This document shows positions 9,086 through 30,224 of a stretch of 32,000 nucleotides of DNA, one piece after another. The stretch is from positions 30,001 through 62,000 of the forward strand of contig JBBIMK010000008.1 in NCBI GenBank assembly GCA_037444445.1. Reading direction: 5' to 3'. Position 1 is the stretch's first letter; each line of letters begins with the position of its first letter. The stretch comes from a bacterium. GTDB taxonomy: Bacteria; UBP7; UBA6624; JBBIMK01. A program made the position numbers and the translations under genes. Below the pieces are notes generated by a model. That model worked only from the letters and a program-made list of their open reading frames with translations. It was not told the DNA's origin and searched no databases.

Positions 9086-9160
9086 TGGAGCGGAAGACGG
9101 GATTTGAACCCGCGACCTCCTCCTTGGCAAGGAGACGCTCTTCCCCTGAGCTACTTCCGC
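9086..9160 (-). tRNA. tRNA-Gly (anticodon GCC), 3' CCA encoded
   Basis: Hand-folded cloverleaf: GCGGAAG-TA-GCTC/AGGGGAA/GAGC-G-TCTCC/TTGCCAA/GGAGG-AGGTC-GCGGG/TTCAAAT/CCCGT-CTTCCGC-T-CCA. Length 75 nt. The discriminator U fits bacterial tRNA-Gly. Confidence 0.9.
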
Positions 9161-9247
9161 TCCTATCTCCACTATGTTATACCATTCAGGGGAAAATTCT
9201 GCAAGACTTCTGACCATCAAGATAGCGGGGACATTACTCATCATCCC

Positions 9248-9320
9248 TGGGCCGTGAGGGAGTCGAACCCCCGACCCGCTGATTAAGAGTCAGCTGCTCT
9301 GCCTTCTGAGCTAACGGCCC
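9248..9320 (-). tRNA. tRNA-Lys (anticodon CTT)
   Basis: Hand-folded: GGGCCGT-TA-GCTC/AGAAGGCA/GAGC-A-GCTGA/CTCTTAA/TCAGC-GGGTC-GGGGG/TTCGACT/CCCTC-ACGGCCC-A. Length 73 nt. CCA is not encoded. Confidence 0.9.
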
Positions 9321-9329
9321 CGGGAAGAA

Positions 9330-9403
9330 CGCGCCTGAGAGGACTCGAACCCCCAACCCGCGGATCCGAAGTCCGCTGCTCTGTCCACTTGAGCTACAGG
9401 CGC
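9330..9403 (-). tRNA. tRNA-Arg (anticodon TCG)
   Basis: Hand-folded: GCGCCTG-TA-GCTC/AAGTGGACA/GAGC-A-GCGGA/CTTCGGA/TCCGC-GGGTT-GGGGG/TTCGAGT/CCTCT-CAGGCGC-G. Length 74 nt. The T stem has two G-U pairs. Confidence 0.85.
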
Positions 9404-9467
9404 CCTGCATATTCCCTTTTTCTTCTTTTTCCTGAATCATTCCTCGCAGTCTATTTATTCCATCCAT

Positions 9468-9540
9468 CGCGCCCAGGAGGATTCGAACCTCCGGCCCGCG
9501 GCTTAGAAGGCCGCTGCTCTGTCCCCTGAGCTATGGGCGC
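9468..9540 (-). tRNA. tRNA-Arg (anticodon TCT)
   Basis: Hand-folded: GCGCCCA-TA-GCTC/AGGGGACA/GAGC-A-GCGGC/CTTCTAA/GCCGC-GGGCC-GGAGG/TTCGAAT/CCTCC-TGGGCGC-G. Length 73 nt. Confidence 0.9.
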
Positions 9541-9549
9541 CGGGAGACA

Positions 9550-9623
9550 TCGGGGCGAGTGGACTTGAACCACCGACCCCCTCCTCCCAAGGGAGGTGCG
9601 CTACCAGCCTGCGCTACGCCCCG
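9550..9623 (-). tRNA. tRNA-Pro (anticodon TGG)
   Basis: Hand-folded: CGGGGCG-TA-GCGC/AGGCTGGTA/GCGC-A-CCTCC/CTTGGGA/GGAGG-GGGTC-GGTGG/TTCAAGT/CCACT-CGCCCCG-A. Length 74 nt. Confidence 0.9.
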
Positions 9624-9742: not shown

Positions 9743-10138
9743 ATGGAAAAACCCGCCGGTGTATGGGTGGTGAGCATTTTATTTTTCATCGGTGGAGCCC
9801 TCGGGGTTCTGGGTGGTTTGATGATGCTCCTTGGCGGTGGAGCCATCGGTGTAATGGGTGGAATGGCAGGAAGAGGAATCTTTAGCGGCGCCATCCTGGG
9901 TTTTGTTGGCTTCGTCACCCTCATCCTTGCCGTTTTTGAACTCATCGTGGGATGGGGAGTTCTGACCTTACAACTCTGGGCTCGCATCGTGGGCATTATC
10001 CTTGCCATTATCAGCCTTCTGAGTATTCCCATTGGCACGATTATCGGGCTGGTGATTTTATACTTTCTCGTGCTGGATAAAGCCACGGTGGCTGCCTTTC
10101 AGCCTGCTCCACCCCCATCATCACCCCCGCCAGGTTAA
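9743..10138 (+). CDS. Small polytopic membrane protein (about 4 TM, Gly-rich helices, Pro-rich tail), function unknown
   Basis: 131-aa ORF with GGAGGTG 7 nt upstream of the ATG. Hydrophobic segments are VWVVSILFFIGGALGVLGGLMMLL, ILGFVGFVTLILAVFELIVGWGV and IVGIILAIISLLSIPIGTIIGLVILYFLV. The C terminus is PAPPPSSPPPG. Confidence 0.7.
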   Translation: MEKPAGVWVVSILFFIGGALGVLGGLMMLLGGGAIGVMGGMAGRGIFSGAILGFVGFVTLILAVFELIVGWGVLTLQLWARIVGIILAIISLLSIPIGTIIGLVILYFLVLDKATVAAFQPAPPPSSPPPG

Positions 10139-10237: not shown

Positions 10238-11302
10238 ATGGTAACCCCGATGAGTTCACTGCAGTCAATTTTCCAGAATCGGCGTGGATTGCGATTTCTA
10301 TTTACTGGAGGGAAGGGCGGGGTGGGAAAAACTGTCATCGCATCCGCTATGGCGTATCATTTTTCCGAGCAGGGGAAGAAAATACTTCTGGCTTCCTTGA
10401 ATCCTGTTCACTCCCTGTCATCCGTGTTCCAGCAAGAGCTTTCCGGCGGCTCTGTGAAGCCTGTGGCAGGCGTCCCGAATCTTTACGCCATAGAAGTGGA
10501 GATTCAGGAAGTGGTTCAACGCTATCGGGAGAACATCGGGAAGCGGGTCCGGGATTTTTTGAAGTGGTCTGACATCCCCCTGGATGCTAAACCCTTTGTG
10601 GACATCGCCGCCACCAACCCTGCTTTTGAGGAATCCGCTATGTTTGACAAAATGATTGACCTCATGCTGACCTGGAGCAGGGAAGTCAACTCCACCGGAA
10701 GAAATGAAAGCAGGGATAGCGGGCAAACCGCCCCCGCATTTGACCTGATTATCTTTGATACTGCTGCAGTTGCCAATGCTATCCGCCTCATCGGATTATC
10801 CAAAATCTACGGCCTCTGGCTTCAAAGAATGATTGAATCCCGCAAGGAAGCCCTTTCTCTCCGGGTTCAACTCTCTTTCCGGAAGGAGAAAATTATGGAG
10901 GAAGTGCGAAAGGACCCCCTGCTTGCCGACCTTCTGGATATGAATGAGCGGTATATTCGCGCTCGCGCGCTCCTCACCGACCCTCAAATCACCGCTTTCT
11001 TTTTTGTCACTCTCCCCCTTGCACTTCCCATTGCTGTGGTCACCCGCTTCATCCAGATGGTTCAACAGTATGACATTCCTGTAGGAGGCGTGATTGTCAA
11101 CGGGATGATGGATGAATCCATCCTTATGCAGAACCCGGGGGATGAATACCTGCAAAACCGGTGGGAAGAGCAGAAAAGATACCTGGGCATTATCCAGCGA
11201 GATTTAGGGCATCTGGTTTGTGCCCATACCTCTTTATTGCCCGGCGAAGTCGTGGGGCTTGAAGCCCTTGCCACCATCGCTTCTTCCCTCTTCTCTCCGT
11301 GA
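10238..11302 (+). CDS. ArsA/Get3-family ATPase, single nucleotide-binding domain, divergent switch region
   Basis: Deviant Walker A FTGGKGGVGKT. The ArsA/Get3 signature SLNPVHSLSSVF corresponds to canonical S-T-D-P-A-H-S-L-S-D-A-F. Walker B/switch II reads IIFDTAAVANAIRLIGL, where the canonical form is DTAPTGHTLRLL. Confidence 0.8.
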   Translation: MVTPMSSLQSIFQNRRGLRFLFTGGKGGVGKTVIASAMAYHFSEQGKKILLASLNPVHSLSSVFQQELSGGSVKPVAGVPNLYAIEVEIQEVVQRYRENIGKRVRDFLKWSDIPLDAKPFVDIAATNPAFEESAMFDKMIDLMLTWSREVNSTGRNESRDSGQTAPAFDLIIFDTAAVANAIRLIGLSKIYGLWLQRMIESRKEALSLRVQLSFRKEKIMEEVRKDPLLADLLDMNERYIRARALLTDPQITAFFFVTLPLALPIAVVTRFIQMVQQYDIPVGGVIVNGMMDESILMQNPGDEYLQNRWEEQKRYLGIIQRDLGHLVCAHTSLLPGEVVGLEALATIASSLFSP

Positions 11303-11530: not shown

Positions 11531-11558
11531 TTGACAAGGACGGAGCAGGTGGTATAAT
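11531..11558 (+). promoter_or_regulatory. Near-consensus sigma70 promoter with extended -10, heading the metal-efflux island
   Basis: TTGACA (11531-11536), a 16-nt spacer ending in TGG, then TATAAT (11553-11558), which forms a TGnTATAAT extended -10. ATG 11567 is 8 nt after the -10, so the transcript would be leaderless or nearly so. Confidence 0.6.
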
Positions 11559-11566
11559 AAGATAGG

Positions 11567-11944
11567 ATGAGCGCACAAAGAAAGGTTGCACTATTTTTCA
11601 TCCTTAGCGTTGGGATGTCGTGGATAGGGGTAATGAATTGTTCCTCTACCAGGCTCGAATCTCACCATTCGGGAATGCCCATACCTGCCTCTTCAGTGCC
11701 CTGCCCGAAGTGCAGCCCAACCCAATTGCCTGTTCTTCACATTCTTACCTGCGTTCATCCCAATGCTTCCGTTTTCTTCCCCACTTTTGAGTCAACGAGA
11801 GCTTTCCAGCCTGCACTGCTCTCTACGCTGAGTGATTTCGTCCATTCCCCGGCAGTATGGCATTCACCGAGTCCAGCAGGTTTTCATCTAAAACCGCCGA
11901 ATCAAGTTCCACTTTATCTGTTAAACCTCTCTATTTTATCCTGA
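11567..11944 (+). CDS. Hypothetical small exported Cys/His/Pro-rich protein (125 aa)
   Basis: ORF with a signal-peptide-like N terminus (MSAQRKVALFFILSVGMSWIGVMNC), a CPKC motif and several His. It occupies the position of small periplasmic accessory ORFs seen upstream of some czc/cus operons. No family was recognised, and its coding status is uncertain. Confidence 0.3.
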   Translation: MSAQRKVALFFILSVGMSWIGVMNCSSTRLESHHSGMPIPASSVPCPKCSPTQLPVLHILTCVHPNASVFFPTFESTRAFQPALLSTLSDFVHSPAVWHSPSPAGFHLKPPNQVPLYLLNLSILS

Positions 11945-12101: not shown

Positions 12102-13430
12102 ATGGAAAATGCGGGCAATGGATACAGGTTTGCCCGATATAAAAAAGACTGGATACCCATCCTTCTTCTTCTCTTCTGGAGTGGAATCGGATGGGCGGAG
12201 AATCCTGCCATTACACCCATAGAAGCGTTTGTCCGGGAGGCGCCGGAGAAGAACCCGGAAATTCAGGCACTCACTTATCAGTGGGAAGCGATGAAGGCAC
12301 GGATTTCTCCCGCGAAAACCCTGCCTGACCCTACCATTGGCATCCGTCTGATGAATATGGGAAACCGCTTGAGCCTCGGGAAGGATATGAACTCTATGGT
12401 GGGAATCTCTTTCTCACAGATGGTGCCGTATGCGGGCAAACTCCCCCTGATGGGCAAGATTATGGAAGAAGAAGCCAACCAAATGTTTTATATGCTCCAG
12501 GAGAAAAGGTGGATGCTCACCGCGGAAGTTAAAAAAACCTACTACTCTATCTACCACACCGACCGGATGCTGGAAATTCTTCAGGAGAATAAAACCATCC
12601 TGGAGAATATGGAGAAGTCAATGGAAGCGATGTATCAAGTTGGGGAAGCGCTCCAGCAGGATGTCCTGAAGGCCCAGGTGTCGATTTCTAAGCTTCTGGA
12701 GCAGATGCTGGACCTCCGGAGGCAGAGAAAGGAGTTAGAGGCACGGATGAACCGTCTTCTGGGAAGAAGCGTCACGGCGCCCATCGGAAATCTCCAGGTG
12801 TCTGAGGAGATTTCCCTGCCTTACACGCTGGAGGACTTCAGAGAACTGGCGCTGAAATATTCGCCCACCCTGAGAGTGGAGGAAAAGGGAATCTCCAGGG
12901 CGGAGTATCAAGTGAAACTTGCGGAAAGGGAGTTCAAGCCGGACGCCATGTTCACATACTCTCGTTTCGCTCGTGGAAACTTTGGTCCCGCCTGGGAAGC
13001 CATGATGGAAATCACCGTGCCGTTATACAAGGAGAAAAAGCAGGCTTTTCAACTGATAGAAGCCCGGCAAAAGAAAGAGCAGGCAGAGCAGGCGCTTCAA
13101 GGGAAGAAAAACGAAATTCTCCAGGGGCTGGATGAAATGTTCGCCGCTCTTCAAACCAATGAGGAAATCTATCATCTCCTCGTGGATGGAATCATCCCAC
13201 AGGCGGAACTCACTTTTCGGGCATCTATGTCCGCTTATCAAGTGGGAAAGGTGGATTTCCTCACCACCCTGGATAGTCTGATGACTCTTTACGATATGAA
13301 GATGCGCCTTCACATGACCCTGGAGATGTTTCATAAAGACCTGTCGGATGTGGAGGCAATGATTGGAAAATCCTTAGAGATTCATTCTGGAGGTGAAACT
13401 CATGGAATCAAAACGACTCAAGAAAACTAA
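12102..13430 (+). CDS. cusC: TolC-family outer membrane efflux factor (CusC/CzcC-like)
   Basis: 442 aa with signal peptide KKDWIPILLLLFWSGIGWA and the heavy-metal OMF N-terminal pattern (EKNPEIQALTYQWEAMKARISPAKTLPDPTIG). It shows the two-repeat coiled-coil OMF architecture and lies directly upstream of the MFP and RND genes. The frame stays open upstream to 12027, so an alternative ATT/CTG start behind a strong SD is possible (see findings). Confidence 0.85.
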   Translation: MENAGNGYRFARYKKDWIPILLLLFWSGIGWAENPAITPIEAFVREAPEKNPEIQALTYQWEAMKARISPAKTLPDPTIGIRLMNMGNRLSLGKDMNSMVGISFSQMVPYAGKLPLMGKIMEEEANQMFYMLQEKRWMLTAEVKKTYYSIYHTDRMLEILQENKTILENMEKSMEAMYQVGEALQQDVLKAQVSISKLLEQMLDLRRQRKELEARMNRLLGRSVTAPIGNLQVSEEISLPYTLEDFRELALKYSPTLRVEEKGISRAEYQVKLAEREFKPDAMFTYSRFARGNFGPAWEAMMEITVPLYKEKKQAFQLIEARQKKEQAEQALQGKKNEILQGLDEMFAALQTNEEIYHLLVDGIIPQAELTFRASMSAYQVGKVDFLTTLDSLMTLYDMKMRLHMTLEMFHKDLSDVEAMIGKSLEIHSGGETHGIKTTQEN

Positions 13431-14826
13431 CTGGTTTATCGGGGCGGGGTTGATACTCACCCTTGTGGGGGGATACACTGCCCATCAGCAAGGCTGGCTG
13501 ACCCTGCCTTTCTTTTCCCCAGCTATTACCGCACAACCTATGGAAGGGATGAGCGGAATGGAGATGGGGAAATCAAAAGAGGAGCATGCGGGAATGGCCG
13601 GGATGGAAGGTATGGAGGAAATGGAGGAAGAGGTAGCGCCCAAACGCATTATGATTGACCCGGAAATGCAGCAGATTATCGGCGTCAGAATCCAGAAGGC
13701 CGGATATATGCCCCTCGTGAAAGAAATTCGGACGGTGGGACGAGTGGAATATGACGAAACCCGACTGAAAGCGGTTACAGTTCGGGTGATGGGCTACATT
13801 ACCAAACTTCTTGTGGATTACACAGGGAAAGAGGTAGAAGAAGGCGAACCACTTTTTACCTTTTATTCTCCTGAGCTTGTTTCTGCGCAGCAGGAATATC
13901 TTCTGGCGTTAAAAGGGGCGAACACTCTTTCCGGTTCCTCCTATTCGGAAATCAGCCAGGGGAGCAAAACCCTGCTGGAATCTGCAAGAAAGCGTCTTCT
14001 CCTCTGGAACTTCACTGAGGAACAAATTCAATCTCTGGAAAATCGTGGAGAGCCAGAGATTGAGTCCTATGTCTATTCCCCGGTTTCTGGGACCGTGGTA
14101 GAAAAGATGGCTCTACAAGGCAAGCAGGTGATGCCCGGGGAAGATTTATACAAAATTGCAGACCTCTCTCAAGTCTGGGTTATTGCCGACCTGTATGAGG
14201 AGGATGCTCCCCTATTGCGAGTTGGCCAGCATGCTTCCATTCAACTCACCTATTACCCTGGCAAAGCCTTCCACGGCTCTGTGGATTACATCTATCCCTA
14301 TTTAGACGAGAAAACGAGAACGATCCGGGTCCGCTTCGCCTTTCGAAACCAGCGAGAAAATGCCCGTGGCGTGAGGGAGGAAACCCGGCACCTGGAACAC
14401 GAAGGAATGGAAGGGATGGAAATGCCTGGAATGCCCGGCATGAATCACACACAGCACCAGGCTCCAAATTCAACCTCTGAAAATTCTTCCGGATGGCTTC
14501 TGAAACCCGGCATGTTCACCAATGTGACAGTGAATGTGAATCTCGGGCAGTATCTTGCGATTCCGGAGGACTCTGTCATAGACACGGGCTTACGTCAGGT
14601 CGTTTTCGTGGACCTGGGGAATGGACATTTCGAGCCCCGGAATGTGGTTCTCGGGCATCGGGTGAACGGCTACTACGCCGTTCTCTCAGGCTTGAAGCCA
14701 GGAGAGCCTATTGTGACCAGCGCCAACTTCCTGCTGGATGCAGAGAGCAAAATCCGCACTGCGATGCCTGCGATGCCGGGAATGGATATGAAAGGGATGA
14801 AGATGCCCGGACATGCAGGACATTAG
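13402..14826 (+). CDS. cusB: Efflux RND periplasmic adaptor (CusB-like), with three Met-rich segments
   Basis: The ORF track starts at GTG 13393. ATG 13402 is preferred because GGAGGTG lies 6 nt upstream. The HlyD/MFP core is present (VRVMGYITKLLVDYTGKEVEEGEPLFTFYSPELVSAQQEYL). Met-rich tracts are MEGMSGMEMGKSKEEHAGMAGMEGMEEMEEE (N terminus), HLEHEGMEGMEMPGMPGMNHTQHQ (internal) and MPAMPGMDMKGMKMPGHAGH (C terminus). Confidence 0.9.
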   Translation: MESKRLKKTNWFIGAGLILTLVGGYTAHQQGWLTLPFFSPAITAQPMEGMSGMEMGKSKEEHAGMAGMEGMEEMEEEVAPKRIMIDPEMQQIIGVRIQKAGYMPLVKEIRTVGRVEYDETRLKAVTVRVMGYITKLLVDYTGKEVEEGEPLFTFYSPELVSAQQEYLLALKGANTLSGSSYSEISQGSKTLLESARKRLLLWNFTEEQIQSLENRGEPEIESYVYSPVSGTVVEKMALQGKQVMPGEDLYKIADLSQVWVIADLYEEDAPLLRVGQHASIQLTYYPGKAFHGSVDYIYPYLDEKTRTIRVRFAFRNQRENARGVREETRHLEHEGMEGMEMPGMPGMNHTQHQAPNSTSENSSGWLLKPGMFTNVTVNVNLGQYLAIPEDSVIDTGLRQVVFVDLGNGHFEPRNVVLGHRVNGYYAVLSGLKPGEPIVTSANFLLDAESKIRTAMPAMPGMDMKGMKMPGHAGH

Positions 14827-14841: not shown

Positions 14842-17800
14842 ATGATTGAACGACTAATAGACTGGTCTGCACGGAATAAATTCCTCGTTCTTCTCGCCAC
14901 CTTCTTTGCCATTCTCGGAGGTATCTGGGCGATTAAGAACACTCCGCTGGATGCCATCCCCGACCTCTCCGATGTTCAGGTCATCATCTACACCGAATGG
15001 ATGGGAAGAAATCCCAGAATCATAGAGGACCAGATTACCTATCCCATTTCCACCACTATGCTCTCTGCGCCGAAAGTGAAGGCGGTTCGGGGCATTTCTG
15101 CCTTCGGCTTCTCCTTCATCTATGTCATCTTTCAGGATGGAACGGACATCTACTGGGCGAGGACTCGTGTTCTGGAATATCTGGAAAAAATCAAAGGGCG
15201 TCTCCCGCCCGGCATCACGCCAATCCTCTCCCCGGATGCCACGGGAGTGGGCTGGGTTTATATTTATGCCCTCGCAGATAAAACCGGTCAGAACGACCTG
15301 GCACAACTTCGGACCATCCAGGACTGGTATCTGAAGTACTATCTGGAAAGCCTGCCTGATGTGGCAGAGGTGGGCACCTTTGGAGGTTTTGTTCGGGAAT
15401 ATCAGGTGGAAGTTGACCCGAATAAACTTCTTGCCTTCGGCATCCCGTTGAAGATGGTGATGGATGGCATCCGAATGAGCAATCTGGAGGTGGGAGGTGG
15501 AGCCATTGAACTCGCCCAGACGGAATATATGGTGCGAGGGATAGGATATGTGCAAAAAGTGGAGGACCTGAAAAATATCCCTCTGGGCACCAATATGATG
15601 GGCACGCCGATTTATCTCAAGGATGTGGCGAGAGTGACCCTGGGACCCGATATGAGGAGAGGAGCGGCGGACCTGAATGGAGAGGGCGATGTGGTGGGAG
15701 GCATCGTTGTGATGCGGTATGGAAAAAACGCCCTGCAGGTCATTAACCGGGTGAAGGTGGCGATAGAAGAGTTTCAGAAAACCCGACTCCCCCCCGGTGT
15801 TGAAATCATCCCCGTCTACGACCGTTCCAAACTCATTCTACAATCCATTGCTACCCTTCGCCGAACCCTGATTGAAGAGTCCATCATCGTGATTCTCGTG
15901 TGTCTCATCTTTCTCTTCAGCCTGAGAAGTTCCGGCGTGGTCATCGTCACTCTACCCATTGCCGTGATTCTTTCCTTCATCCCGATGATGTATCTACGGC
16001 TGACCTCCAACATTATGTCGCTGGGCGGGATTGCCATCGCCATCGGAGCCATGGTTGATGCGGCTATCGTGATGATTGAAAATGTCCACAAGCGGCTGGA
16101 GCATTTTGCACTGGAACATCCTGACTGGGCTCTGACATCAGAGGGTAGAGCCCAGCGAAGTCAAATCCTGATTCACGCCATGCAGGAAGTGGGAAAACCC
16201 CTCTTCTATTCCCTTCTGGTTATCACGGTCTCCTTCCTCCCGGTATTCACCTTAGAATATCAGGAGGGGAGGCTTTTCAAGCCATTAGCCTTCACGAAAA
16301 CCTTCTCCATGTTTTTTGCCTCCTTTCTTTCCATCACCCTGGTGCCTGCCATCATGGGACTATTTATTGAGAAGAAGGTCATCCCGGAGAAGAGAAATCC
16401 CATCAGCCGATTTCTTATCAGTCTGTATAATCCTGTTGCCCGTTTTGCACTGCGCTGGCGGTTCATCACCATCACCCTCGGTCTTATGGCAACTTTTCTC
16501 GCTTACCCTGCCTATAAAAAACTGGGGAGTGAATTTATGCCACCTCTCTATGAGGGTACCCTTCTATATATGCCAATGACCACACCGGGGATTTCTATCT
16601 ACGAATCCCGGCGGGTTCTGCAAATACAGGATAAACTCCTGAAGCAATTCCCTGAGGTTGACCAGGTGCTGGGGAAAGTGGGGAGAGCCACCACACCCAC
16701 GGACCCTGCTCCCCTGCCCATGGTAGAAACCGTAGTCTCTCTCAAACCTGAACACGAATGGAGGAAAGGGCTGACCTGGGAAAAACTCTTTGACGAGATG
16801 GATAAAGAAATTCAAATCCCCGGATTCGTGAATGTGATGACCATGCCCATCAAAAATCGGGTGGATATGATCACCACGGGGATACGAACACCCGTAGGAG
16901 TGAAGGTCTTCGGGCCGAAACTGGAGGAGGTTCAGGAGATAGCGGAAGAAATTGAACGCATCATTCCACAGGTGGAAGGCACGAGAAGCGCCATTGCCGA
17001 GCGCTCTTTAGGCGGGTTTTACTTGAACATCACCCCCAGGCGGGAAGCTCTGGCTCGCTACGAACTTTCCATTATGGATGTCCAGGATGTGATAGAAATG
17101 GCAATCGGTGGAACTGTCATCTCCACCACGATTGAGGGCCGAGAACGCTACCCCATCAATATCCGGTATCCGAGGGAACTTCGGCTCTCTCCAGCCCTCC
17201 TGAAAAGGGTATTGATTCAAACGCCTATGGGCTACTCCATCCCGATTTCGCAGGTGGCGGATATAGAACTCACTCAGGGTCCGGATATGATACGAAGTGA
17301 GCGGGGACAACTCACTGGCACAGTTTATGTTGATGTGGCTGGCCGGGACATTGGCTCCTATGTGGCGGAAGCCAAAAAACTGGTGGAAGAAAAAATCAAA
17401 CTCCCTCAGGGTTATTCCATCCTCTGGAGCGGGCAATACGAGTATATGCAGAGAGTTACAGAAAAGTTAAAATATATGATTCCCCTTACCCTTTTCATCA
17501 TCTTCCTGCTGATGTATCTCAACTTCGGCTCCGTGGGGAAGACTCTCGTAGTGATGCTTTCCATTCCCTTCGCTCTCACCGGGAGTATGCTGGGAATATA
17601 TTTGATGAATTATAATCTCAGCGTGGCGGTGTGGGTGGGAATCATTGCTCTCGCCGGCGTTGCCGCTGAAACCGGCGTGGTGATGCTGGTGTATATTGAT
17701 GAAGCCTATGAACGATACAAAAAACAGGGGATGATGCGCACCCGCCAGGACCTCTCTGATGCCATCATTGAGGGAGCAGTGCAAAGGGTTCGCCCCAAGA

Positions 17801-18009
17801 TGATGACCGTAATGGCTGTCATGATGGGGCTGATTCCCATCCTGTGGAGCCACGGAGCAGGTGCGGATGTGATGCGGAGAATCGCCATGCCGATGATTGG
17901 CGGTATGGTCACTTCTACCATTCTCACTCTCTTCATCATTCCTTCCATCTTTCACATCTGGAAATCTTTTGAACTCCCTAAACAGAAGCAAACTGGAGGT
18001 GAATCCTGA
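14842..18009 (+). CDS. cusA: Heavy-metal efflux RND transporter, CusA type (Cu(I)/Ag(I))
   Basis: 1055 aa with HME-RND architecture. Positions equivalent to the E. coli CusA methionine triad are conserved: LLYMPM, PLPMVET and NRVDMITTG. The stop overlaps the next start (TGATG at 18007-18011). Confidence 0.93.
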   Translation: MIERLIDWSARNKFLVLLATFFAILGGIWAIKNTPLDAIPDLSDVQVIIYTEWMGRNPRIIEDQITYPISTTMLSAPKVKAVRGISAFGFSFIYVIFQDGTDIYWARTRVLEYLEKIKGRLPPGITPILSPDATGVGWVYIYALADKTGQNDLAQLRTIQDWYLKYYLESLPDVAEVGTFGGFVREYQVEVDPNKLLAFGIPLKMVMDGIRMSNLEVGGGAIELAQTEYMVRGIGYVQKVEDLKNIPLGTNMMGTPIYLKDVARVTLGPDMRRGAADLNGEGDVVGGIVVMRYGKNALQVINRVKVAIEEFQKTRLPPGVEIIPVYDRSKLILQSIATLRRTLIEESIIVILVCLIFLFSLRSSGVVIVTLPIAVILSFIPMMYLRLTSNIMSLGGIAIAIGAMVDAAIVMIENVHKRLEHFALEHPDWALTSEGRAQRSQILIHAMQEVGKPLFYSLLVITVSFLPVFTLEYQEGRLFKPLAFTKTFSMFFASFLSITLVPAIMGLFIEKKVIPEKRNPISRFLISLYNPVARFALRWRFITITLGLMATFLAYPAYKKLGSEFMPPLYEGTLLYMPMTTPGISIYESRRVLQIQDKLLKQFPEVDQVLGKVGRATTPTDPAPLPMVETVVSLKPEHEWRKGLTWEKLFDEMDKEIQIPGFVNVMTMPIKNRVDMITTGIRTPVGVKVFGPKLEEVQEIAEEIERIIPQVEGTRSAIAERSLGGFYLNITPRREALARYELSIMDVQDVIEMAIGGTVISTTIEGRERYPINIRYPRELRLSPALLKRVLIQTPMGYSIPISQVADIELTQGPDMIRSERGQLTGTVYVDVAGRDIGSYVAEAKKLVEEKIKLPQGYSILWSGQYEYMQRVTEKLKYMIPLTLFIIFLLMYLNFGSVGKTLVVMLSIPFALTGSMLGIYLMNYNLSVAVWVGIIALAGVAAETGVVMLVYIDEAYERYKKQGMMRTRQDLSDAIIEGAVQRVRPKMMTVMAVMMGLIPILWSHGAGADVMRRIAMPMIGGMVTSTILTLFIIPSIFHIWKSFELPKQKQTGGES

Positions 18010-18014
18010 TGAAA
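17953..18014 (+). repeat. Direct repeat copy A (3' end of cusA through the first codons of the next gene)
   Basis: Sequence is CACATCTGGAAAT[22 nt]GCAAACTGGAGGTGAATCCTGATGAAA. It matches copy B at 24205-24241, apart from a 22-nt and a 3-nt indel and two mismatches. Confidence 0.75.
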
Positions 18015-18242
18015 TTTTTTGACCCTGTTTGCAACGTTTTCCTGGACACGCTGGACGAAGAGTTGCAGGCCCCTCACGGCAACCACATTCACTACTTCTG
18101 CTCTCCCACCTGCCGGAAAATCTATGAGGAAGCACTGGAATACGAGGAGACCATCCGAAATCCACTGGAGTTCCATGCCGGTGGCAGGGAAAAGGAGCCA
18201 TACCTTTTCATCAAGAGGGTAGATACAGGGTATGAGGCGTAG
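18009..18242 (+). CDS. YHS-domain mini-protein (77 aa)
   Basis: MKFFDPVCNVFL...HIHYFCSPTCRKIYEE matches the YHS/TRASH pattern DPVC-x(n)-Y(Y/F)FCS-x2-C. The start is translationally coupled to the cusA stop. Confidence 0.8.
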   Translation: MKFFDPVCNVFLDTLDEELQAPHGNHIHYFCSPTCRKIYEEALEYEETIRNPLEFHAGGREKEPYLFIKRVDTGYEA

Positions 18243-18275
18243 AAGAAAAAACTGAACACCTGGAGGTGAGAAAAT

Positions 18276-18764
18276 ATGAAACTTGTATGGGCGGTCATTC
18301 GGGAAAATAGACTACGAGAAGTTCAAAAAGCCCTGCAAAAAGAAGGCTTTACCGGGGCAACCGTAGTCCATGTTTCCGGTATGGGGGAAGAAGATTCTCA
18401 TCCTCCCCTCACCCTTTTTCCCCACATCAAAATGGAAATCATCACTTCGGATAACCTGGCAGAAAAAGCAGTGGAAACGATTATGAATGCTGCCTGGACG
18501 GGCTTGCCAGGAGACGGAGGGATTGCCATCTTACCGGTGGAGAAGGTCTGGAAAATCCGACATAAGGAACGACTCATCACTCTTTTGGAAAAAGTGATTG
18601 ACCCGGTTTGCAAAATGAAGATAGAGAAAATGAAAGCAGCGGGTAAGACAGAGTTTGCAGGAACCAGTTACTACTTCTGTTCTGAAATATGCCTGTTAAA
18701 ATTCCAGGAGTCTCCGGAAAAATTTCTCCGGGCAAGCAAGAGCTCTAAAGTAAAGGAGGAATAA
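18276..18764 (+). CDS. PII-like (GlnB-fold) domain fused to a C-terminal YHS domain
   Basis: The N-terminal ~105 aa align by eye to PII proteins: MKLVWAVIRENRLREVQKALQKEGFTGATVVHVSGMG...IKMEIITSDNLAEKAVETIMNAAWTGLPGDGGIAILPVEKVWKIRHKE. The B-loop TGxxGDG is kept and the T-loop is about 8 aa shorter. The C terminus DPVCKMKIEKMKAAGKTEFAGTSYYFCSEICLLKFQESPEKF is a YHS domain. GGAGGTGAG lies upstream. Confidence 0.8.
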   Translation: MKLVWAVIRENRLREVQKALQKEGFTGATVVHVSGMGEEDSHPPLTLFPHIKMEIITSDNLAEKAVETIMNAAWTGLPGDGGIAILPVEKVWKIRHKERLITLLEKVIDPVCKMKIEKMKAAGKTEFAGTSYYFCSEICLLKFQESPEKFLRASKSSKVKEE

Positions 18765-18766
18765 AT

Positions 18767-19060
18767 ATGAAATTGAATCCGGCAGGATTCGCAAGCGCTC
18801 TGGGGATAACCTCAGCCATCCTTTACTTTGTGTGCGGCATCCTTGCCGCGGTCACTCCTCAGTTTCTCCTCTACATTTTCAAGACCTGGTTCCACGGGAT
18901 GAATCTGGATGCACTCGTCCCTGCTGACGGACACATTTTCAATCTGACTCTGTTCATCATCGGGCTTATCACCTTCACGGCTACCGGCTGGGGCAGTGGG
19001 TGGTTGGTGGCAATTATTTACAATTTGTGGCAAAAGAAAAGCCCGGAGAAAGGAGAGTGA
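18767..19060 (+). CDS. Small membrane protein (97 aa, 2-3 TM), function unknown
   Basis: AAAGGAGGA lies 6 nt upstream of the ATG, and the start is 2 nt after the previous stop. Hydrophobic segments are LGITSAILYFVCGILAAV and LTLFIIGLITFTATGWGSGWLVAIIY. Confidence 0.65.
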   Translation: MKLNPAGFASALGITSAILYFVCGILAAVTPQFLLYIFKTWFHGMNLDALVPADGHIFNLTLFIIGLITFTATGWGSGWLVAIIYNLWQKKSPEKGE

Positions 19061-19065
19061 TAGAG

Positions 19066-19275
19066 ATGGTAATGGAAATTGACCCCGTGTGCGGTATGAG
19101 GGTGGATACACGGATTCCTGCTGCTAAATCTGAGCATGAAGGGATTACTTATTTCTTCTGCTCCGTTGGGTGCAAGGGCATCTTTGACCAGGACCCCGAC
19201 AAATACAGCCGACTATACTGGAAGAAAAGAGGGATGGATAAACCTGAATCTCCGGAGGTGGAGACTGATGGTTGA
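19066..19275 (+). CDS. YHS-domain mini-protein (69 aa)
   Basis: The ORF track starts at 19000, but ATG 19066 has AAAGGAGAG 8 nt upstream and follows the previous stop by 5 nt. MVMEIDPVCGMRVDTRIPAAKSEHEGITYFFCSVGCKGIFDQDPDKY is a canonical YHS domain. Confidence 0.8.
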   Translation: MVMEIDPVCGMRVDTRIPAAKSEHEGITYFFCSVGCKGIFDQDPDKYSRLYWKKRGMDKPESPEVETDG

Positions 19276-19483
19276 GAAGGACCCGGTATGCGGGATGCCG
19301 GTAGATACAAAACGGGCAGGCAGTAGCCTTTCCTTTCAGTATAACGGAAGGACCTACTACTTTTGCTCTCACTATTGCCGGGAGCATTTTGAAGCGGACC
19401 CGGAACGATATTACCGGGGAAGGCAGACAGAGATGATGGGCCCACATAAAGAATTCAGGGAAAAAGGAGGTGAAAATGAATGA
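19268..19483 (+). CDS. YHS-domain mini-protein (71 aa)
   Basis: The ORF track starts at 19136. ATG 19268 has GGAGGTGGAG upstream and overlaps the previous gene by 8 nt (ATGGTTGA). The sequence is MVEKDPVCGMPVDTKRAGSSLSFQYNGRTYYFCSHYCREHFEADPERY. Confidence 0.8.
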   Translation: MVEKDPVCGMPVDTKRAGSSLSFQYNGRTYYFCSHYCREHFEADPERYYRGRQTEMMGPHKEFREKGGENE

Positions 19484-19977
19484 AGGGCCGAAATTCTCTT
19501 CACTGGATTCTGGCACTGGCGTTTACAGGGCTTTTTCTCGGTGTGGCAGACGATTCTTCCTCTACGCCTCATGATGAGGGGATGATGGGCGGGATGATGC
19601 CTATGATGCAGATGTGCCACCAGATGATGTCCCGACAGATGTCGGGAATGGGCGGCGGTATGCATCATCCTATGATGGACATGATGGGGCATGAACCGCA
19701 ACCCATGACCCCCGAGGAGCGGGAAATCGCTAAAATGATGGCGGATGCAGAGGTGAAAGAAGCCCAGCTGCACCGAATGCTTCTGGAAGAGAATGTGAAT
19801 CCGGATGCCCTGAAGGGAAAGATACGAGAGATTCATGACCTTCAGGTGGAAATCCAGTTCAGGGAAATCATGACCGCTCGTGCAAAAGCATCGGCTCAGA
19901 AACCTTCCGAAAAGGGAGAAAGCAAGAGTGAGCACGAGATGCATCACATGGGCGGCATGGGCAGGATGGGGAAATAA
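19480..19977 (+). CDS. Exported Met/His-rich protein with a Spy/CpxP/ZraP-like helical core (periplasmic metal binding or chaperone)
   Basis: Signal peptide MKGRNSLHWILALAFTGLFLGVA. The Met/His tract is HDEGMMGGMMPMMQMCHQMMSRQMSGMGGGMHHPMMDMMGHEPQPM. The helical segment TPEEREIAKMMADAEVKEAQLHRMLLEENVNPDALKGKIREIHDLQVEIQFREIM resembles periplasmic heavy-metal-sensor/Spy-family repeats. The C-terminal tail is HEMHHMGGMGRMGK. The ATGA overlaps the previous stop, and GGAGGTG lies 8 nt upstream. Confidence 0.75.
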   Translation: MKGRNSLHWILALAFTGLFLGVADDSSSTPHDEGMMGGMMPMMQMCHQMMSRQMSGMGGGMHHPMMDMMGHEPQPMTPEEREIAKMMADAEVKEAQLHRMLLEENVNPDALKGKIREIHDLQVEIQFREIMTARAKASAQKPSEKGESKSEHEMHHMGGMGRMGK

Positions 19978-20021
19978 CGGAGGGTGAAGAGGAGGAATTG
20001 CCCCCTTCCATCAGGAATCGC

Positions 20022-20052
20022 GGGGGGTCCTCTACCTGCTCCGGGACCCCCC
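20022..20052 (+). other. GC-rich stem-loop inside the operon (no U tract)
   Basis: GGGGGGTCC (20022-20030) pairs perfectly with GGACCCCCC (20044-20052) around a 13-nt loop. It lies in the only sizeable gap (96 nt) of the module and is followed by CGATTCC rather than a T run. Confidence 0.5.
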
Positions 20053-20073
20053 CCGATTCCACTTTAAGGAGGA

Positions 20074-20766
20074 ATGCATATGCCTACATGCGCTGTGTGC
20101 TTGATGAAAGTCTCACGCGAGGTTAAATTTCGCACAGAAATTAAGAAGCGAACCTACTATTTTTGCAGTTCCCGCTGTCTGATGCAATTTCAGAAAACTC
20201 CGGAAAAATATTCTCCTGTGCATATACGAACACCGGCATTTGTGGGAATTCCTTCCCGGGTTCATCTCAGCCAATCCGCCTTTACAGCATTGATTTTATC
20301 CGTGGCGGAGATATTCAAAAAAGAAGCCATGGGCTACCTTCTGGGAAATTGCAAGGGCGAAGTGGTGGAGATAGACCATGCGATACCCTTTCAAACGGGT
20401 AAAAGAGGTTATACTTACAGTGCAGTTTCTCTCCGGCGGCTGGAGTGGGTTAGAGACCTGACAGAGCGCATCCATCCAGGATTGCAGTGGATTGGAGATT
20501 ATCATTCTCACCCTCAGCATGGAAATGTCCTGCGTCTTCACCTTCCCAGCATTCTGGATGTGGAAGATATGGAACCCGGGTATGTTTATTTAGTCATTTC
20601 AGTGAACGAAGTACAAGTTTGCTTACCCTGGCGCACGAGCAGGAAGAGGGGAACTCTCGCTGGAACTCTGGGAAAATTGCGGATGGAGATTGCGGGCTAC
20701 TGTCTTGATAAAGAGCAAAATTTGCGCCGTTTAGAGGTGGATGCCCCCTGGTTGAAAAGAAAATAA
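20074..20766 (+). CDS. TRASH/YHS-type zinc-ribbon domain fused to a JAB/MPN (JAMM) metallopeptidase domain
   Basis: The N terminus CAVC-x21-CSSRC (MPTCAVCLMKVSREVKFRTEIKKRTYYFCSSRCLMQFQKTPEKY) is the full TRASH C-x2-C-x19-22-C-x3-C pattern. The C-terminal half has JAMM elements: KKEAMGYLLG (Glu) and GDYHSHPQHGNVLRLHLPSILD. That is HxH...S-x2-D with 12 residues where 7 are usual. The likely true start is ATG 20080, 7 nt after AAGGAGG. Confidence 0.75.
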   Translation: MHMPTCAVCLMKVSREVKFRTEIKKRTYYFCSSRCLMQFQKTPEKYSPVHIRTPAFVGIPSRVHLSQSAFTALILSVAEIFKKEAMGYLLGNCKGEVVEIDHAIPFQTGKRGYTYSAVSLRRLEWVRDLTERIHPGLQWIGDYHSHPQHGNVLRLHLPSILDVEDMEPGYVYLVISVNEVQVCLPWRTSRKRGTLAGTLGKLRMEIAGYCLDKEQNLRRLEVDAPWLKRK

Positions 20767-27542: not shown

Positions 27543-30224
27543 ATGTGCTCACCAGGAGGGTTTTTCAAGAGATGGCAGATAGGATGGGTGGTGGCGTGTT
27601 TGATGATTTTTTCCAGTATAGGGGGACGACAGGGCATAGAAGATTTAGAGGATTGGCCCCGAAGGACCAAACGAGCAGAAGAAGAAACGACTTTTGATGA
27701 ACGGGTGAAAGGGGCAGAAGTGCAGAAGGGATTATTCACGCTGTATCGCAGGAAAGACCATTTATACCTGGAGATTCAGCCTTCGCAGCTGGAAAAAAAT
27801 TTCATCATGATTCTCACGCTGGAAAAGGGGCTGGGAATTCGCGACCTACTGGGTGGCTTGCCTATAGATGAATATGTACTGACTTTCCGCAGGATGGAGG
27901 ATAAAGTGTTGTGGATAAAGCGAAACCCCTATTTTCGTGCGGCGAAAGGAACGCCGGTGGAAAGAGCCGTGGAACATGCTTTCTCGGATTCCATTCTGAC
28001 TACCCTTCCTATTGAGGCAGAACATCCAAAGACAGGAGCTCTTCTGATAGATATTCAAAAATATCTGCTGTCGGACATTCCCGCTCTTTCCTTTGCTCTC
28101 CAGCAGGCTCTGGGAGAGGAGTATTCGCTGAATAAAGATGCCAGCCATCTCTCTTATCTCAAAGTATTTCCGGAGAATATAGAATTCGGAGTGCTGTATA
28201 ACTATGTGACTTCAAAGCCCAATTACATAGAAGGGCTTCCGGATGCCCGGAGTGTGGAACTGGGGGTTCGTTATAGTGTTTCCGAGTTGCGGGAGACGGA
28301 TTATCGCCCGCGTCTGGCAGACGACCGCGTGGGGTATTTTCTCGTGGCGCTCAAAGATTTTTCCAGCGACAATCCCCGAAGCCCTTTCGTTCGGTATATC
28401 ATTCGCTGGAATCTGCAGAAAGCGGACCCAACCGCCACCATTTCTCCACCGAAAAAGCCCATTGTATTCTGGGTTGAGAACACTGTTCCGGTGGAGTATC
28501 GGGAGGCTGTAAGGGAAGGAATTTTAATGTGGAATAAAGCCTTTGAAAAGGCAGGCTTCAGGGATGCCATCGTGGCGAAAATTCAGCCGGATGATGCGGA
28601 CTGGGATGCGGCAGATGTCCGTTACAATACCATCCGCTGGATTACTTCCAGCGATGTCTCCTTCGGTGGAATCGGACCTGCCCGTGTCAATCCCCTGACG
28701 GGGGAGATTCTGGATGCGGACATCCTCATAGAAAATGAAACGGTTCGGGGAATTCGCCAGTATTATCGTCGGATAATTGCACCACGCTCCAGCACTTTTC
28801 CAGCCTTTCCTTTCCAGCCATCGTTTAATTTCTGCGAGTTTGGAAGCGTGCTTCAGACGGAAGCAAGTTTTGCGCTTCTGGCGATGACAGCCCGTGGGGA
28901 TTTGCCGCCCGAGGATGTGCCTCCTGAATTTGTCCACGCCTATATTCGGGAACTCGTGGGGCACGAGGTAGGGCATGTGCTGGGGCTACGCCACAATTTT
29001 AAGGGCAGTTTATTGCATAAATTGGAGGATGTGAACCGCCCGGAATTGACACGACAAACCGGCCTCTCCTCCTCCATTATGGACTATATACCGGTGAACC
29101 TGGCTCCTAAAGACATGCCACAGGGTGAGTATTTCACCAGCACGGTAGGCCCCTGGGATGTATGGATGATTGAGTACGGGTATAAACCCATAGATGCCCG
29201 CACTCCGGAAGAGGAATTGGTAGAACTCCGGAAAATTGCATCCCTGACTGTCCTTCCTGAACATGCTTATGGCACGGATGAAGATACTTTCGGCTGGTCG
29301 GAAGAACCGGTTACACCAGACCCTACTTCCAACTGGAGTGATTTAAGTGATGACCCCATAGCCTGGGCGGAACGAAGAATCCAGATTGCTCAGGAAGTTT
29401 TGCCACGGCTGATTGACCGCTCCATACCGGAAGGGGAAGGATACGAATTGCTTCGTCAGAACTTTCATACTTTGCTGATGATGATACGGAATAATACTCA
29501 GGTATTTGCTAAATTTATCGGGGGTCAATATATGAGGAGAATGCATAAAGGGGATGGGGAAGGTCTGCTTCCCATGGAAGTCGTGCCTGCAAAGGAGCAA
29601 AGGCGGGCTTTAGAACTATTGAACCGCTATCTCTTTCTGGATACTTTTTTCCAATTCCCACCGGAATTACTGAATCGCCTTTCACCGAGCCGATGGGCGC
29701 ACTGGGGAAGCGATACATTTTCTTCCGCTCGTTTAGACTACCCCTTACACGAAGTCATCTTAGAGATGCGAGCCGCGGCTCTGCGGCGTCTTCTCCACCC
29801 CTATGTCTTGAGCAGAATTCAAGAGGGTGAGAAGAAGATGCTCCAGGGAAAAGAAGCCTACAGTCTTGCAGAACTTTTTGATTTTTTGCGAGCGGCCATC
29901 TGGAGCGAACTTTCTCAAAAGCCTCCGGCTGGAGGATATTCGGAGCAATCTCCTTTCATATCCAGTTTTCGGCGGGAATTTCAAAAGGAATTTATCCATC
30001 AGTTCATTGACCTGATGCTGGCTCCCGCTGAAGGAACTCCTGAGGATGCCCGGACCCTTGCCTGGGCAACTCTGACTCATCTTCAGAACGAAATTCGGGA
30101 GGTCTTGAGTTCAGATGTGGGGAAAGGGCTGGATTTACTCAGTCGGACTCATCTGGAAGAGACGAAGGTGCGAATTCAGCGGGCATTGGAAGCTCGGTTT
30201 CTTGTTCGTGCGGATTCCCTCTAA
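27543..30224 (+). CDS. Secreted zinc-dependent metalloprotease (metzincin-like HEXXHXXGXXH; large DUF-type family common in Bacteroidota and others)
   Basis: 893 aa with a hydrophobic N terminus (WQIGWVVACLMIFSSIGG). The active-site motif is HEVGHVLGLRHNF, followed by SSSIMDY. AGGAGGGAG lies upstream of the ATG. Confidence 0.8.
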   Translation: MCSPGGFFKRWQIGWVVACLMIFSSIGGRQGIEDLEDWPRRTKRAEEETTFDERVKGAEVQKGLFTLYRRKDHLYLEIQPSQLEKNFIMILTLEKGLGIRDLLGGLPIDEYVLTFRRMEDKVLWIKRNPYFRAAKGTPVERAVEHAFSDSILTTLPIEAEHPKTGALLIDIQKYLLSDIPALSFALQQALGEEYSLNKDASHLSYLKVFPENIEFGVLYNYVTSKPNYIEGLPDARSVELGVRYSVSELRETDYRPRLADDRVGYFLVALKDFSSDNPRSPFVRYIIRWNLQKADPTATISPPKKPIVFWVENTVPVEYREAVREGILMWNKAFEKAGFRDAIVAKIQPDDADWDAADVRYNTIRWITSSDVSFGGIGPARVNPLTGEILDADILIENETVRGIRQYYRRIIAPRSSTFPAFPFQPSFNFCEFGSVLQTEASFALLAMTARGDLPPEDVPPEFVHAYIRELVGHEVGHVLGLRHNFKGSLLHKLEDVNRPELTRQTGLSSSIMDYIPVNLAPKDMPQGEYFTSTVGPWDVWMIEYGYKPIDARTPEEELVELRKIASLTVLPEHAYGTDEDTFGWSEEPVTPDPTSNWSDLSDDPIAWAERRIQIAQEVLPRLIDRSIPEGEGYELLRQNFHTLLMMIRNNTQVFAKFIGGQYMRRMHKGDGEGLLPMEVVPAKEQRRALELLNRYLFLDTFFQFPPELLNRLSPSRWAHWGSDTFSSARLDYPLHEVILEMRAAALRRLLHPYVLSRIQEGEKKMLQGKEAYSLAELFDFLRAAIWSELSQKPPAGGYSEQSPFISSFRREFQKEFIHQFIDLMLAPAEGTPEDARTLAWATLTHLQNEIREVLSSDVGKGLDLLSRTHLEETKVRIQRALEARFLVRADSL

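Follow-up and report, generated by a model that had tools for sequence, protein, structure and literature searches.

We describe a gene that joins an N-terminal PII signal-transduction domain to a C-terminal YHS metal-binding domain, and that lies in an operon for a CusA-type heavy-metal efflux pump of the RND family. It occupies 18276..18764 on the plus strand of the window, by which we mean the whole stretch of 32,000 nucleotides analysed here (positions 30,001 to 62,000 of contig JBBIMK010000008.1). PII-YHS, as we call it, is a real gene that looks expressed, and its product is a cytoplasmic protein of two domains. In our reading, to which we give about an even chance, the protein is a cytoplasmic accessory or regulator of the CusCBA pump that responds to Cu(I)/Ag(I), the YHS domain being the metal input. 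We infer the metal binding, the formation of a trimer, the partner and the direction of control. From the gene order, CusA (or the redox module further along the operon) would be the target, and the control would be post-translational. Both domains and a metal-linked group of PII proteins were already known. What is new is the fusion, the recurrent pairing of PII and YHS genes and the twofold origin of the fusion near CusA-type pumps, and we found none of these three in the literature that we searched.

The PII-YHS protein and its effector pocket

The open reading frame (ORF) runs for 162 amino acids plus a stop from an ATG start, and a Shine-Dalgarno element, GGAGGTGA, can be read from the sequence at 18262..18269, with the end of its GGAGG 9 nt 5' of the ATG (this and the features below are on the plus strand unless stated otherwise). 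The N-terminus, MKLVWAVIR, lines up with the MKMIWAVIR of the family N-termini. Residues 1-98 (18276..18569) match positions 1-102 of the 102 in the Pfam P-II profile (PF00543) with an E-value of 1.7e-19 and 70.5 bits against a cut-off of 25, while residues 107-152 (18594..18731) match positions 1-45 of the 47 in the YHS profile (PF04945) with an E-value of 2.9e-15 and 56.4 bits against a cut-off of 30.3. Between the two envelopes lies a linker, RLITLLEK, made of residues 99-106 (18570..18593). The YHS ligand set is complete, with D109, C112, C135 and C139 giving D-x2-C-x22-C-x3-C, and the locus has four more YHS-type domains with which this one aligns. A preliminary description of this DNA, made from the sequence alone, had proposed a PII layout for the N-terminus and a complete YHS domain for the C-terminus, and both are borne out by these matches. 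Database annotation pipelines already record the combined architecture, and NCBI gives such proteins the name 'P-II family nitrogen regulator'.

The closest solved structure is that of GlnB-2/GlnK2 from Archaeoglobus fulgidus (PDB 3ncp, E 1.5e-17), and 41 PII chains in the PDB match at E ≤ 0.01. An AlphaFold2 model that was given a 72-sequence family alignment predicts the beta-alpha-beta-beta-alpha-beta core of the PII domain with a pLDDT of 95-97. The stand-alone YHS proteins of the window misaligned onto the PII domain and were dropped from this alignment, and the YHS part of the fusion lay outside it and was modelled poorly. Because of this the identity of the YHS domain rests on the HMM match and the motif. 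When the PII model was compared to the PDB with Foldseek the best 50 matches were all GlnK, GlnB or GlnZ, with TM-scores normalised to the target of 0.63-0.81. The preliminary description had allowed that HMMs or structure prediction might reveal only CutA or another ferredoxin-like fold. CutA was tried as a candidate and rejected, with no CutA match in Pfam at E ≤ 1 and no CutA among those 50 structures, and the N-terminal domain is a true PF00543 member with a ferredoxin-like fold.

The differences from canonical PII proteins become apparent in the T-loop and the effector pocket. Compared with GlnK2 (3ncp) there is a single gap, of exactly 8 residues and inside the T-loop, which agrees with the earlier estimate of a loop about 8 residues shorter than in GlnB/GlnK. 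In the alignment the shortened loop, EEDSHPPLTLFP, covers residues 38-49 (18387..18422), is followed by H50 at the position equivalent to K58, and has neither the Tyr51 nor the Ser49 modification site. The span from G37 to the K58 position is 12 residues in PII-YHS and 12-13 residues in 131 of 131 family members, compared to 20 in canonical proteins. The preliminary description was right about the shortness but not in treating the truncation as a trait of this protein; as judged from the alignment, a short T-loop characterises the metal-linked PII family as a whole. The same deletion is common to the nearest PII-only relatives (P0020 at 49% identity, P0053, P0122 and P0145) and to a large set of ~108-residue proteins, mostly from gammaproteobacterial metagenome-assembled genomes (MAGs). 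In a neighbour-joining tree, made from identity distances with 50 bootstrap replicates, the short-T-loop sequences have no well-supported exclusive node, though the 7-8-residue deletion is shared by all 131 members.

At the canonical ligand positions PII-YHS has E38 (for R38), E39 (Q39), H50 (K58) and G82 (K90). Similar replacements run through the 131 family members, in which R38 has become Glu in 128, Q39 Tyr or Glu in 128, K58 His in 117 and Tyr in 12, and K90 Ile, Leu or Val in 128. The B-loop that the preliminary description had picked out, TGLPGDGGIAI, is present at residues 75-85 (18498..18530), and by alignment and residue counts it keeps the equivalents of G84, G87, D88 and G89. Across the family these four and E62 are invariant or nearly so, and R103 is kept in 126 members. 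In canonical PII, K58 is a direct 2-oxoglutarate ligand, and the K58N and K58M variants lose 2-oxoglutarate binding (PMC6908673). Given that the canonical ATP/2-oxoglutarate ligands are replaced across the family, K58 included, the sequences make canonical 2-oxoglutarate sensing by PII-YHS very unlikely.

These replacements bear directly on the possibility that PII-YHS is a conventional nitrogen/energy PII of the GlnB/GlnK kind, which would report ATP/ADP/2-oxoglutarate to the pump and for which the YHS domain would be incidental. The clear P-II match, together with the retained GxxGDG of the B-loop and R103, would make adenine-nucleotide binding possible. However, the protein scores far under the NCBIfam equivalog cut-offs for GlnB (54.1 vs 202 bits) and GlnK (47.6 vs 181 bits), R38, Q39, K58 and K90 are all replaced, the Tyr51/Ser49 site is missing, and one of the replaced residues is that whose loss abolishes 2-oxoglutarate binding. 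Additionally, no amtB, glnA, nadE or nif genes were found among the window ORFs scanned. We consider a conventional PII to be very improbable here.

The length of the T-loop also limits how such a protein could act on a membrane partner. The preliminary description had stated that PII proteins use the T-loop to plug or regulate partners, and GlnK plugs the trimeric Amt in this way (PMC3198391). That precedent stands, but with a 12-residue T-loop a deep plug in the style of GlnK is less likely than surface docking or allostery. A separate observation concerns a sister subgroup of short-T-loop PIIs, found in Binatia, Deltaproteobacteria and Syntrophobacteraceae MAGs, which has a strikingly His/Glu-rich T-loop, GYGEEWHLYEPLIHGGHHKLE (L009-L015, L020, L045 and many of L061-L138; the L numbers are those of our fetched loci). 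From its sequence this loop itself looks like a metal site.

Fusion, gene pairing and linkage to metal transporters

The fusion recurs in a second strain (L059, an independent assembly from run SRR11582170) that has 95.9% nucleotide identity to the window over 13.4 kb. The same uninterrupted 162-codon fused ORF is found there, with 155 of the 162 amino acids identical (96%) and all motif residues kept. The two copies differ by 12 synonymous and 7 non-synonymous changes, and the resulting dN/dS of ~0.15 indicates purifying selection. Since the same fused ORF is present in an independent assembly, the fusion is real. The whole block downstream of PII-YHS (DUF5676, YHS and redox genes) is conserved in this strain as well. 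An assembly or sequencing artefact, or a decaying gene, might be suspected from the fact that both parts are separate genes in the closest relatives. Despite this, such an explanation is effectively refuted by the second copy and its pattern of differences, and by an analogous fusion in a second lineage that comprises six clusters at 90% identity, and we give it next to no chance.

The fusion is rare, and outside the window's lineage it was seen in one other. We searched 1.84 billion representative proteins exhaustively with HMMER and inspected the best 150 matches. Multi-YHS proteins dominated this list, and the PII-containing matches were picked from it with a purpose-built HMM. PII and YHS were combined in two of these 150, the window's protein and P0116. 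With the window's protein excepted, a YHS domain was found in none of the best 120 family matches, and none of 80 metagenome loci held a PII-YHS fusion; a word-indexed homologue search with PII-YHS alone gave back PII-YHS itself. The P0116 family (P0116 and P0266-P0270), which forms the six clusters mentioned above, belongs to Candidatus Aminicenantales, and the order of its locus is P-type ATPase, cupredoxin, OEP, MFP, CusA-type RND, PII-YHS and a YHS/HMBD protein. The database search for the same architecture and its neighbours that the preliminary description had suggested has thus found a fusion at the same slot.

The Aminicenantales protein differs from that of the window in both its PII domain and its linker. 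The PII domain has a full-length T-loop, and in the neighbour-joining tree it nests with 98-100% bootstrap among unfused PIIs of ~113 residues, which are themselves encoded after RND genes. The linker is unlike the window's in length and in sequence (an alignment of the two fusions misaligned the first half of the YHS domain). Given the different PII clade and the different linker, the PII-YHS fusion arose twice independently. Two independent fusions at the same type of locus argue strongly, on comparative grounds, for PII and YHS acting together, and with the pump. Along with the occurrence of PII and YHS as separate neighbouring genes, they lend strong comparative backing to the earlier proposal that the YHS domain could give this PII a direct metal input.

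That pairing of separate genes takes several forms in the relatives. In the locus of the closest relative (L001) PII comes first and a separate YHS gene follows 58 nt away, in L009, L065, L070 and L073 a YHS gene comes first and PII follows after 33-35 nt, and in L023/L121 the order is RND, YHS, PII. In the window itself a YHS-like ORF lies 5' of the fusion and another YHS is fused to PII. Related loci also have Cu-type P-type ATPases with a YHS domain in place of the usual N-terminal metal-binding domain (L006, L009 and L010). As an observation apart, the YHS gene that lies between the CusA-type pump and PII in Candidatus Hydrothermus pacificus (L023 8066-8233, also L121 6013-6233) has an in-frame TGA at the position of the second motif Cys, ...GKTYYF[TGA]ALGCKTAFEENPEKYL..., and from its sequence (compare NCBIfam NF041384) the product is probably selenocysteine-containing and the gene not truncated.

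Relatives of the PII domain are often encoded next to metal transporters. In L001, which has an OEP-MFP-RND operon, PII and the stop codon of the CusA-type RND gene overlap, and a PII directly after RND, often with a stop/start overlap, is found in L001, L002, L008, L011, L013, L015, L020, L023, L045 and several metagenome contigs. As the loci were fetched by similarity to PII-YHS, the linkage figures are indications and not frequencies: of the 60 distinct PIIs with a short T-loop that these loci contain, 20 have an RND gene that ends at most 400 nt upstream, and when only genes with at least 1.5 kb of flank are counted the same linkage is seen for 12 of 30 short-T-loop PIIs vs 3 of 82 PIIs with longer T-loops. 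In other relatives PII follows a Cu-type P-type ATPase (L006) or precedes either a YHS-bearing P-type ATPase (L010) or a ZIP transporter (L004). A genome scan for relatives, run with a 3-sequence alignment, also drew in many irrelevant archaeal GlnK/NifI arrays, and a tblastn search of plasmids gave mostly canonical PIIs on chromids, the one informative match being in a Pontibacter plasmid metal island. A second set of PIIs, with a full-length T-loop, ~113-126 residues and without K58 and K90, is found right after CusA-type RND genes in L057/L058 and L051. More than one PII lineage is therefore linked to these pumps.

The short-T-loop family fits the PII 'New Group' (PII-NG), which is tied to heavy-metal efflux genes and has no defined function (PMC11617674, PMC4285133, PMC7726332), and an example of which is GSU2134 of Geobacter sulfurreducens, encoded upstream of czcABC (PMC7726332). 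The preliminary description had been right that such a subgroup is noted in the literature. Our assignment is a match by published description and gene linkage. The group reportedly goes back to Sant'Anna et al. 2009, and to our knowledge the metal-linked PIIs have been in the literature since 2009 without an assigned ligand, partner or function.

The CusCBA operon and the proposed role

The locus is a tightly packed same-strand block that reaches from an outer-membrane factor through PII-YHS to redox genes. The pump is encoded by genes for a TolC/CusC-like outer-membrane factor (12102..13430; Pfam OEP, 133 bits), a CusB/CzcB-type periplasmic adaptor (13393..14826; Pfam HlyD_D23, 252.6 bits) and a CusA-type heavy-metal RND pump (14842..18009; TIGR00914, 1154 bits). 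The adaptor falls below the cut-off of both NCBIfam subfamilies to which it was compared (CzcB/NccB with 138 bits and a cut-off of 319, CusB with 117 bits and a cut-off of 390). The pump has an alignment score of 1156 bits to E. coli CusA vs 512 bits to ZneA, and its TM4 is AIGAMVDAAIVMIEN. Aligned to CusA it keeps M573/M623/M672, which form the periplasmic Met triad, as well as M391, M403, M410, M486 and M501 in the membrane, all of them residues with metal-site roles in the CusA structural literature. On the strength of these alignments we regard it as a true orthologue of CusA in which the methionine metal sites are intact.

The cusA stop codon is overlapped by one base (a TGATG junction) by the ATG of a 77-residue YHS/TRASH-like ORF (18009..18242). 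This ORF has the motif DPVC-x22-C-x3-C by alignment, weak zf-FCS/TRASH matches and a match at E ≤ 0.01 to a purpose-built YHS HMM, and it is a called gene in the second strain too. PII-YHS lies 267 nt 3' of cusA with this ORF in between, and the earlier placement of the gene next to cusA was therefore nearly exact. Beyond PII-YHS, and 3 nt after its stop, comes the gene of a DUF5676 protein with two transmembrane segments (18767..19060; PF18926, 65.9 bits), then the overlapping genes of two stand-alone YHS proteins, one of 69 residues from an internal ATG (19066..19275; Pfam YHS, 51.4 bits) and one of 71 residues (19268..19483; 50.6 bits), both found as genes of the same length in the second strain. 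A YHS-JAB/MPN fusion protein (20074..20766; Pfam YHS 32.5 bits and Prok-JAB 33.5 bits) follows further on, and 3' of it are a Fer4_5 membrane protein, a cytochrome b and a PCYCGC protein. Positions 18009-20223 thus hold five YHS/TRASH-type domains within 2.2 kb, all with (D)PVC...YYFCSxxC, which belong to the 77-residue ORF, PII-YHS, the two stand-alone proteins and the N-terminus of the JAB protein.

Such a concentration of YHS domains bears on what we see as the main rival explanation, a metallochaperone or buffer scaffold. In this case the PII part would be a trimerisation platform showing three YHS domains, and Cu(I)/Ag(I) would be handed to CusA or other acceptors with no signalling, Cu(I) entering via the cytoplasmic side of CusA and its transmembrane methionine relay. 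This is consistent with the density of these domains (five in 2.2 kb, of which small stand-alone proteins account for three), with the placement of YHS on the Cu-type P-type ATPases of L006, L009 and L010 at a position typical of chaperone-like domains, with the conservation of the CusA transmembrane Met residues and with the loss of the canonical PII effector ligands. However, E38, the GDG and the His that replaces K58 are invariant or nearly so across the family, a constraint on the T-loop base and B-loop that exceeds the needs of a passive oligomerisation module, and most family members have no YHS domain. Additionally, the PII and PII-like proteins of known function cited here (GlnK, PII and SbtB) are all signal transducers, the role of the PII-like CutA being unsettled. 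We consider a scaffold possible but not probable.

The genes 3' of PII-YHS could point to another role, in which the protein would serve the downstream redox/membrane module (DUF5676, YHS-JAB, Fer4_5, cytochrome b and PCYCGC) and not CusA. The close spacing to DUF5676, the YHS proteins and redox genes that follow on the same strand, and the conservation of this block in the second strain are all in its favor. Looking across the relatives, though, the recurrent neighbours are RND (20 of 60) and YHS, and DUF5676, Fer4_5 and cytochrome b do not lie beside the PII gene in L001, L002, L006 and L055-L058. This makes the redox module an improbable partner.

If PII-YHS is instead an accessory or regulator of CusCBA, it might work as follows. 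The YHS domain would bind cytoplasmic Cu(I)/Ag(I), and its metal state would be relayed to the cleft and the T-loop face of the PII trimer. The equivalents of R101/R103, which line the cleft, are K93/R95, and the YHS domain starts ~13 residues after them. It would therefore be well placed to influence both the cleft and the T-loop face. The PII trimer would then act on a membrane partner of the same tightly packed, translationally coupled operon, most likely trimeric CusA, so that efflux could be switched or tuned as the metal load of the cytoplasm changes. Crystal structures show CusA as a homotrimer, and a trimer-on-trimer arrangement of PII-YHS and CusA would be attractive. We know of no post-translational regulator for RND metal pumps. 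The preliminary description had stated that the locus has no transcription factor, and in agreement with this no Pfam DNA-binding domain was found among the scanned ORFs of at least 90 residues (9.7-25 kb) and the four smaller ORFs of the YHS cluster. There are precedents for the separate steps of this mechanism. In Mycobacterium phlei an adenylyl cyclase is switched on by copper through a C-terminal YHS on an 8-residue linker (PMC4626032), and SbtB-SbtA and PII-NrtABCD are reported cases of PII or PII-like proteins that directly regulate transporters.

Several points weigh against a regulatory role of this kind. The support for PII-YHS, and for any PII-NG member, is comparative, and confidence in the model is low for the YHS part and for the arrangement of the two domains. 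Three further YHS domains in the operon would be as fitting for buffering or a chaperone as for sensing. RND genes are frequent neighbours but not constant ones (12 of the 30 loci that have enough flank, in a non-random sample). A T-loop of 12 residues could not reach as a deep GlnK-like plug does, and with R103 and the GxxGDG of the B-loop nearly invariant a nucleotide may still be a ligand, in which case the input is maybe not metal alone.

A wider and more doubtful reading would join these observations and treat the metal-transporter-linked PII subgroup as a metal-sensing PII branch that gates pump efflux post-translationally. Its pocket would have turned from an anion site for ATP/2-oxoglutarate into a cation site via E38, E/Y39 and the His at K58, with the GYGEEWHLYEPLIHGGHHKLE loop in the sister subgroup. 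The PII would have a YHS Cu(I) module as its working partner, encoded separately or, as in the window, fused to it, and the PII trimer would dock onto the trimeric CusA/HME-RND pump from the cytoplasmic side. Were this true, heavy-metal export would have a control circuit of the GlnK-AmtB type. Even short of this, the twice-arisen fusion after a CusA-type pump can be used as a 'Rosetta stone' that nominates the YHS protein as the partner or input of the metal-linked PIIs and copper/silver as their signal. This gives the orphan PII-NG group a concrete and testable hypothesis for input and partner, which if confirmed would extend PII signalling from carbon/nitrogen/energy sensing to metal homeostasis.

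The remaining features of the locus can be summarized briefly. Between the second stand-alone YHS protein and the YHS-JAB protein is the gene of a 165-residue Met/His-rich protein (19480..19977) with a signal-peptide-like N-terminus and a weak Metal_resist match. Its Met/His runs are extreme (MMGGMMPMMQM..., HHMGGMGRMGK), and from its sequence the product may bind Cu(I) in the periplasm and take the role of CusF. The YHS-JAB protein is unusual in having a JAMM-like HSHPQH motif, is conserved in the second strain and could be, as far as its motifs go, a metal-controlled isopeptidase or peptidase. A sigma-70 consensus promoter, TTGACA-16-TATAAT with a TG-extended -10 (11531..11558), is a 12/12 pattern match only; it lies ~540 nt 5' of the outer-membrane factor gene, with an unannotated 125-residue ORF (11567-11944) that has a lipoprotein-like N-terminus in between. 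Just 5' of the metal operon is a gene for an ArsA/Get3-like P-loop ATPase (10238-11302, 184.5 bits), which is kept in the second strain and is preceded by a hydrophobic, Gly-rich ORF of 131 residues without a Pfam match (9743-10138). The locus is flanked by housekeeping genes of the chromosome (tig, clpP, clpX, lon, valS and five tRNAs), the tRNA genes (Gly-GCC, Lys-CTT, Arg-TCG, Arg-TCT and Pro-TGG) lying at 9086-9623 on the minus strand between tig and the metal locus. A compositionally foreign island was considered and rejected, the GC content being uniform at 0.47-0.55 across the locus.

Comparison with known systems

CutA1, which is related to PII, is a trimeric protein with a ferredoxin-like fold that was historically linked to copper. 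PII-YHS resembles it to this extent but is set apart from it by the Pfam and Foldseek results given above. SbtB (with SbtA) and PII-NrtABCD share with PII-YHS the pattern of a small PII-type protein encoded with a membrane transporter. These proteins are reported to sense adenine nucleotides or 2-oxoglutarate through long T-loops, whereas here the pocket is remodelled and a metal-binding domain is attached. The adenylyl cyclase of M. phlei is the closest parallel for the other half of the protein, with a complete C-terminal YHS domain (one Asp and three Cys) on a linker of ~8 residues to a signalling or effector domain, but its partner is a cyclase where ours is a PII domain.

With PII-NG the window's protein shares the PF00543 domain, a cytoplasmic location and the linkage to heavy-metal RND efflux genes, and its unfused relatives are of ~100-110 residues and are encoded directly after OEP-MFP-RND. 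It differs in carrying a C-terminal YHS domain and in coming from a host that does not look proteobacterial, the nearest PII in the genome scan being that of a Nitrospirae MAG with 46% identity. The comparison with GlnK/GlnB is the most detailed one. The fold and the B-loop core are the same, and the best sequence and structure matches are GlnK1-3 of A. fulgidus. The differences are a T-loop shortened by 8 residues and lacking Tyr51, the changes R38E, Q39E, K58H and K90G, and the extra YHS domain. As in the case of glnK beside amtB, the PII gene stands beside the gene of a trimeric membrane transporter, but the neighbour of PII-YHS is a metal exporter and not an ammonium channel.

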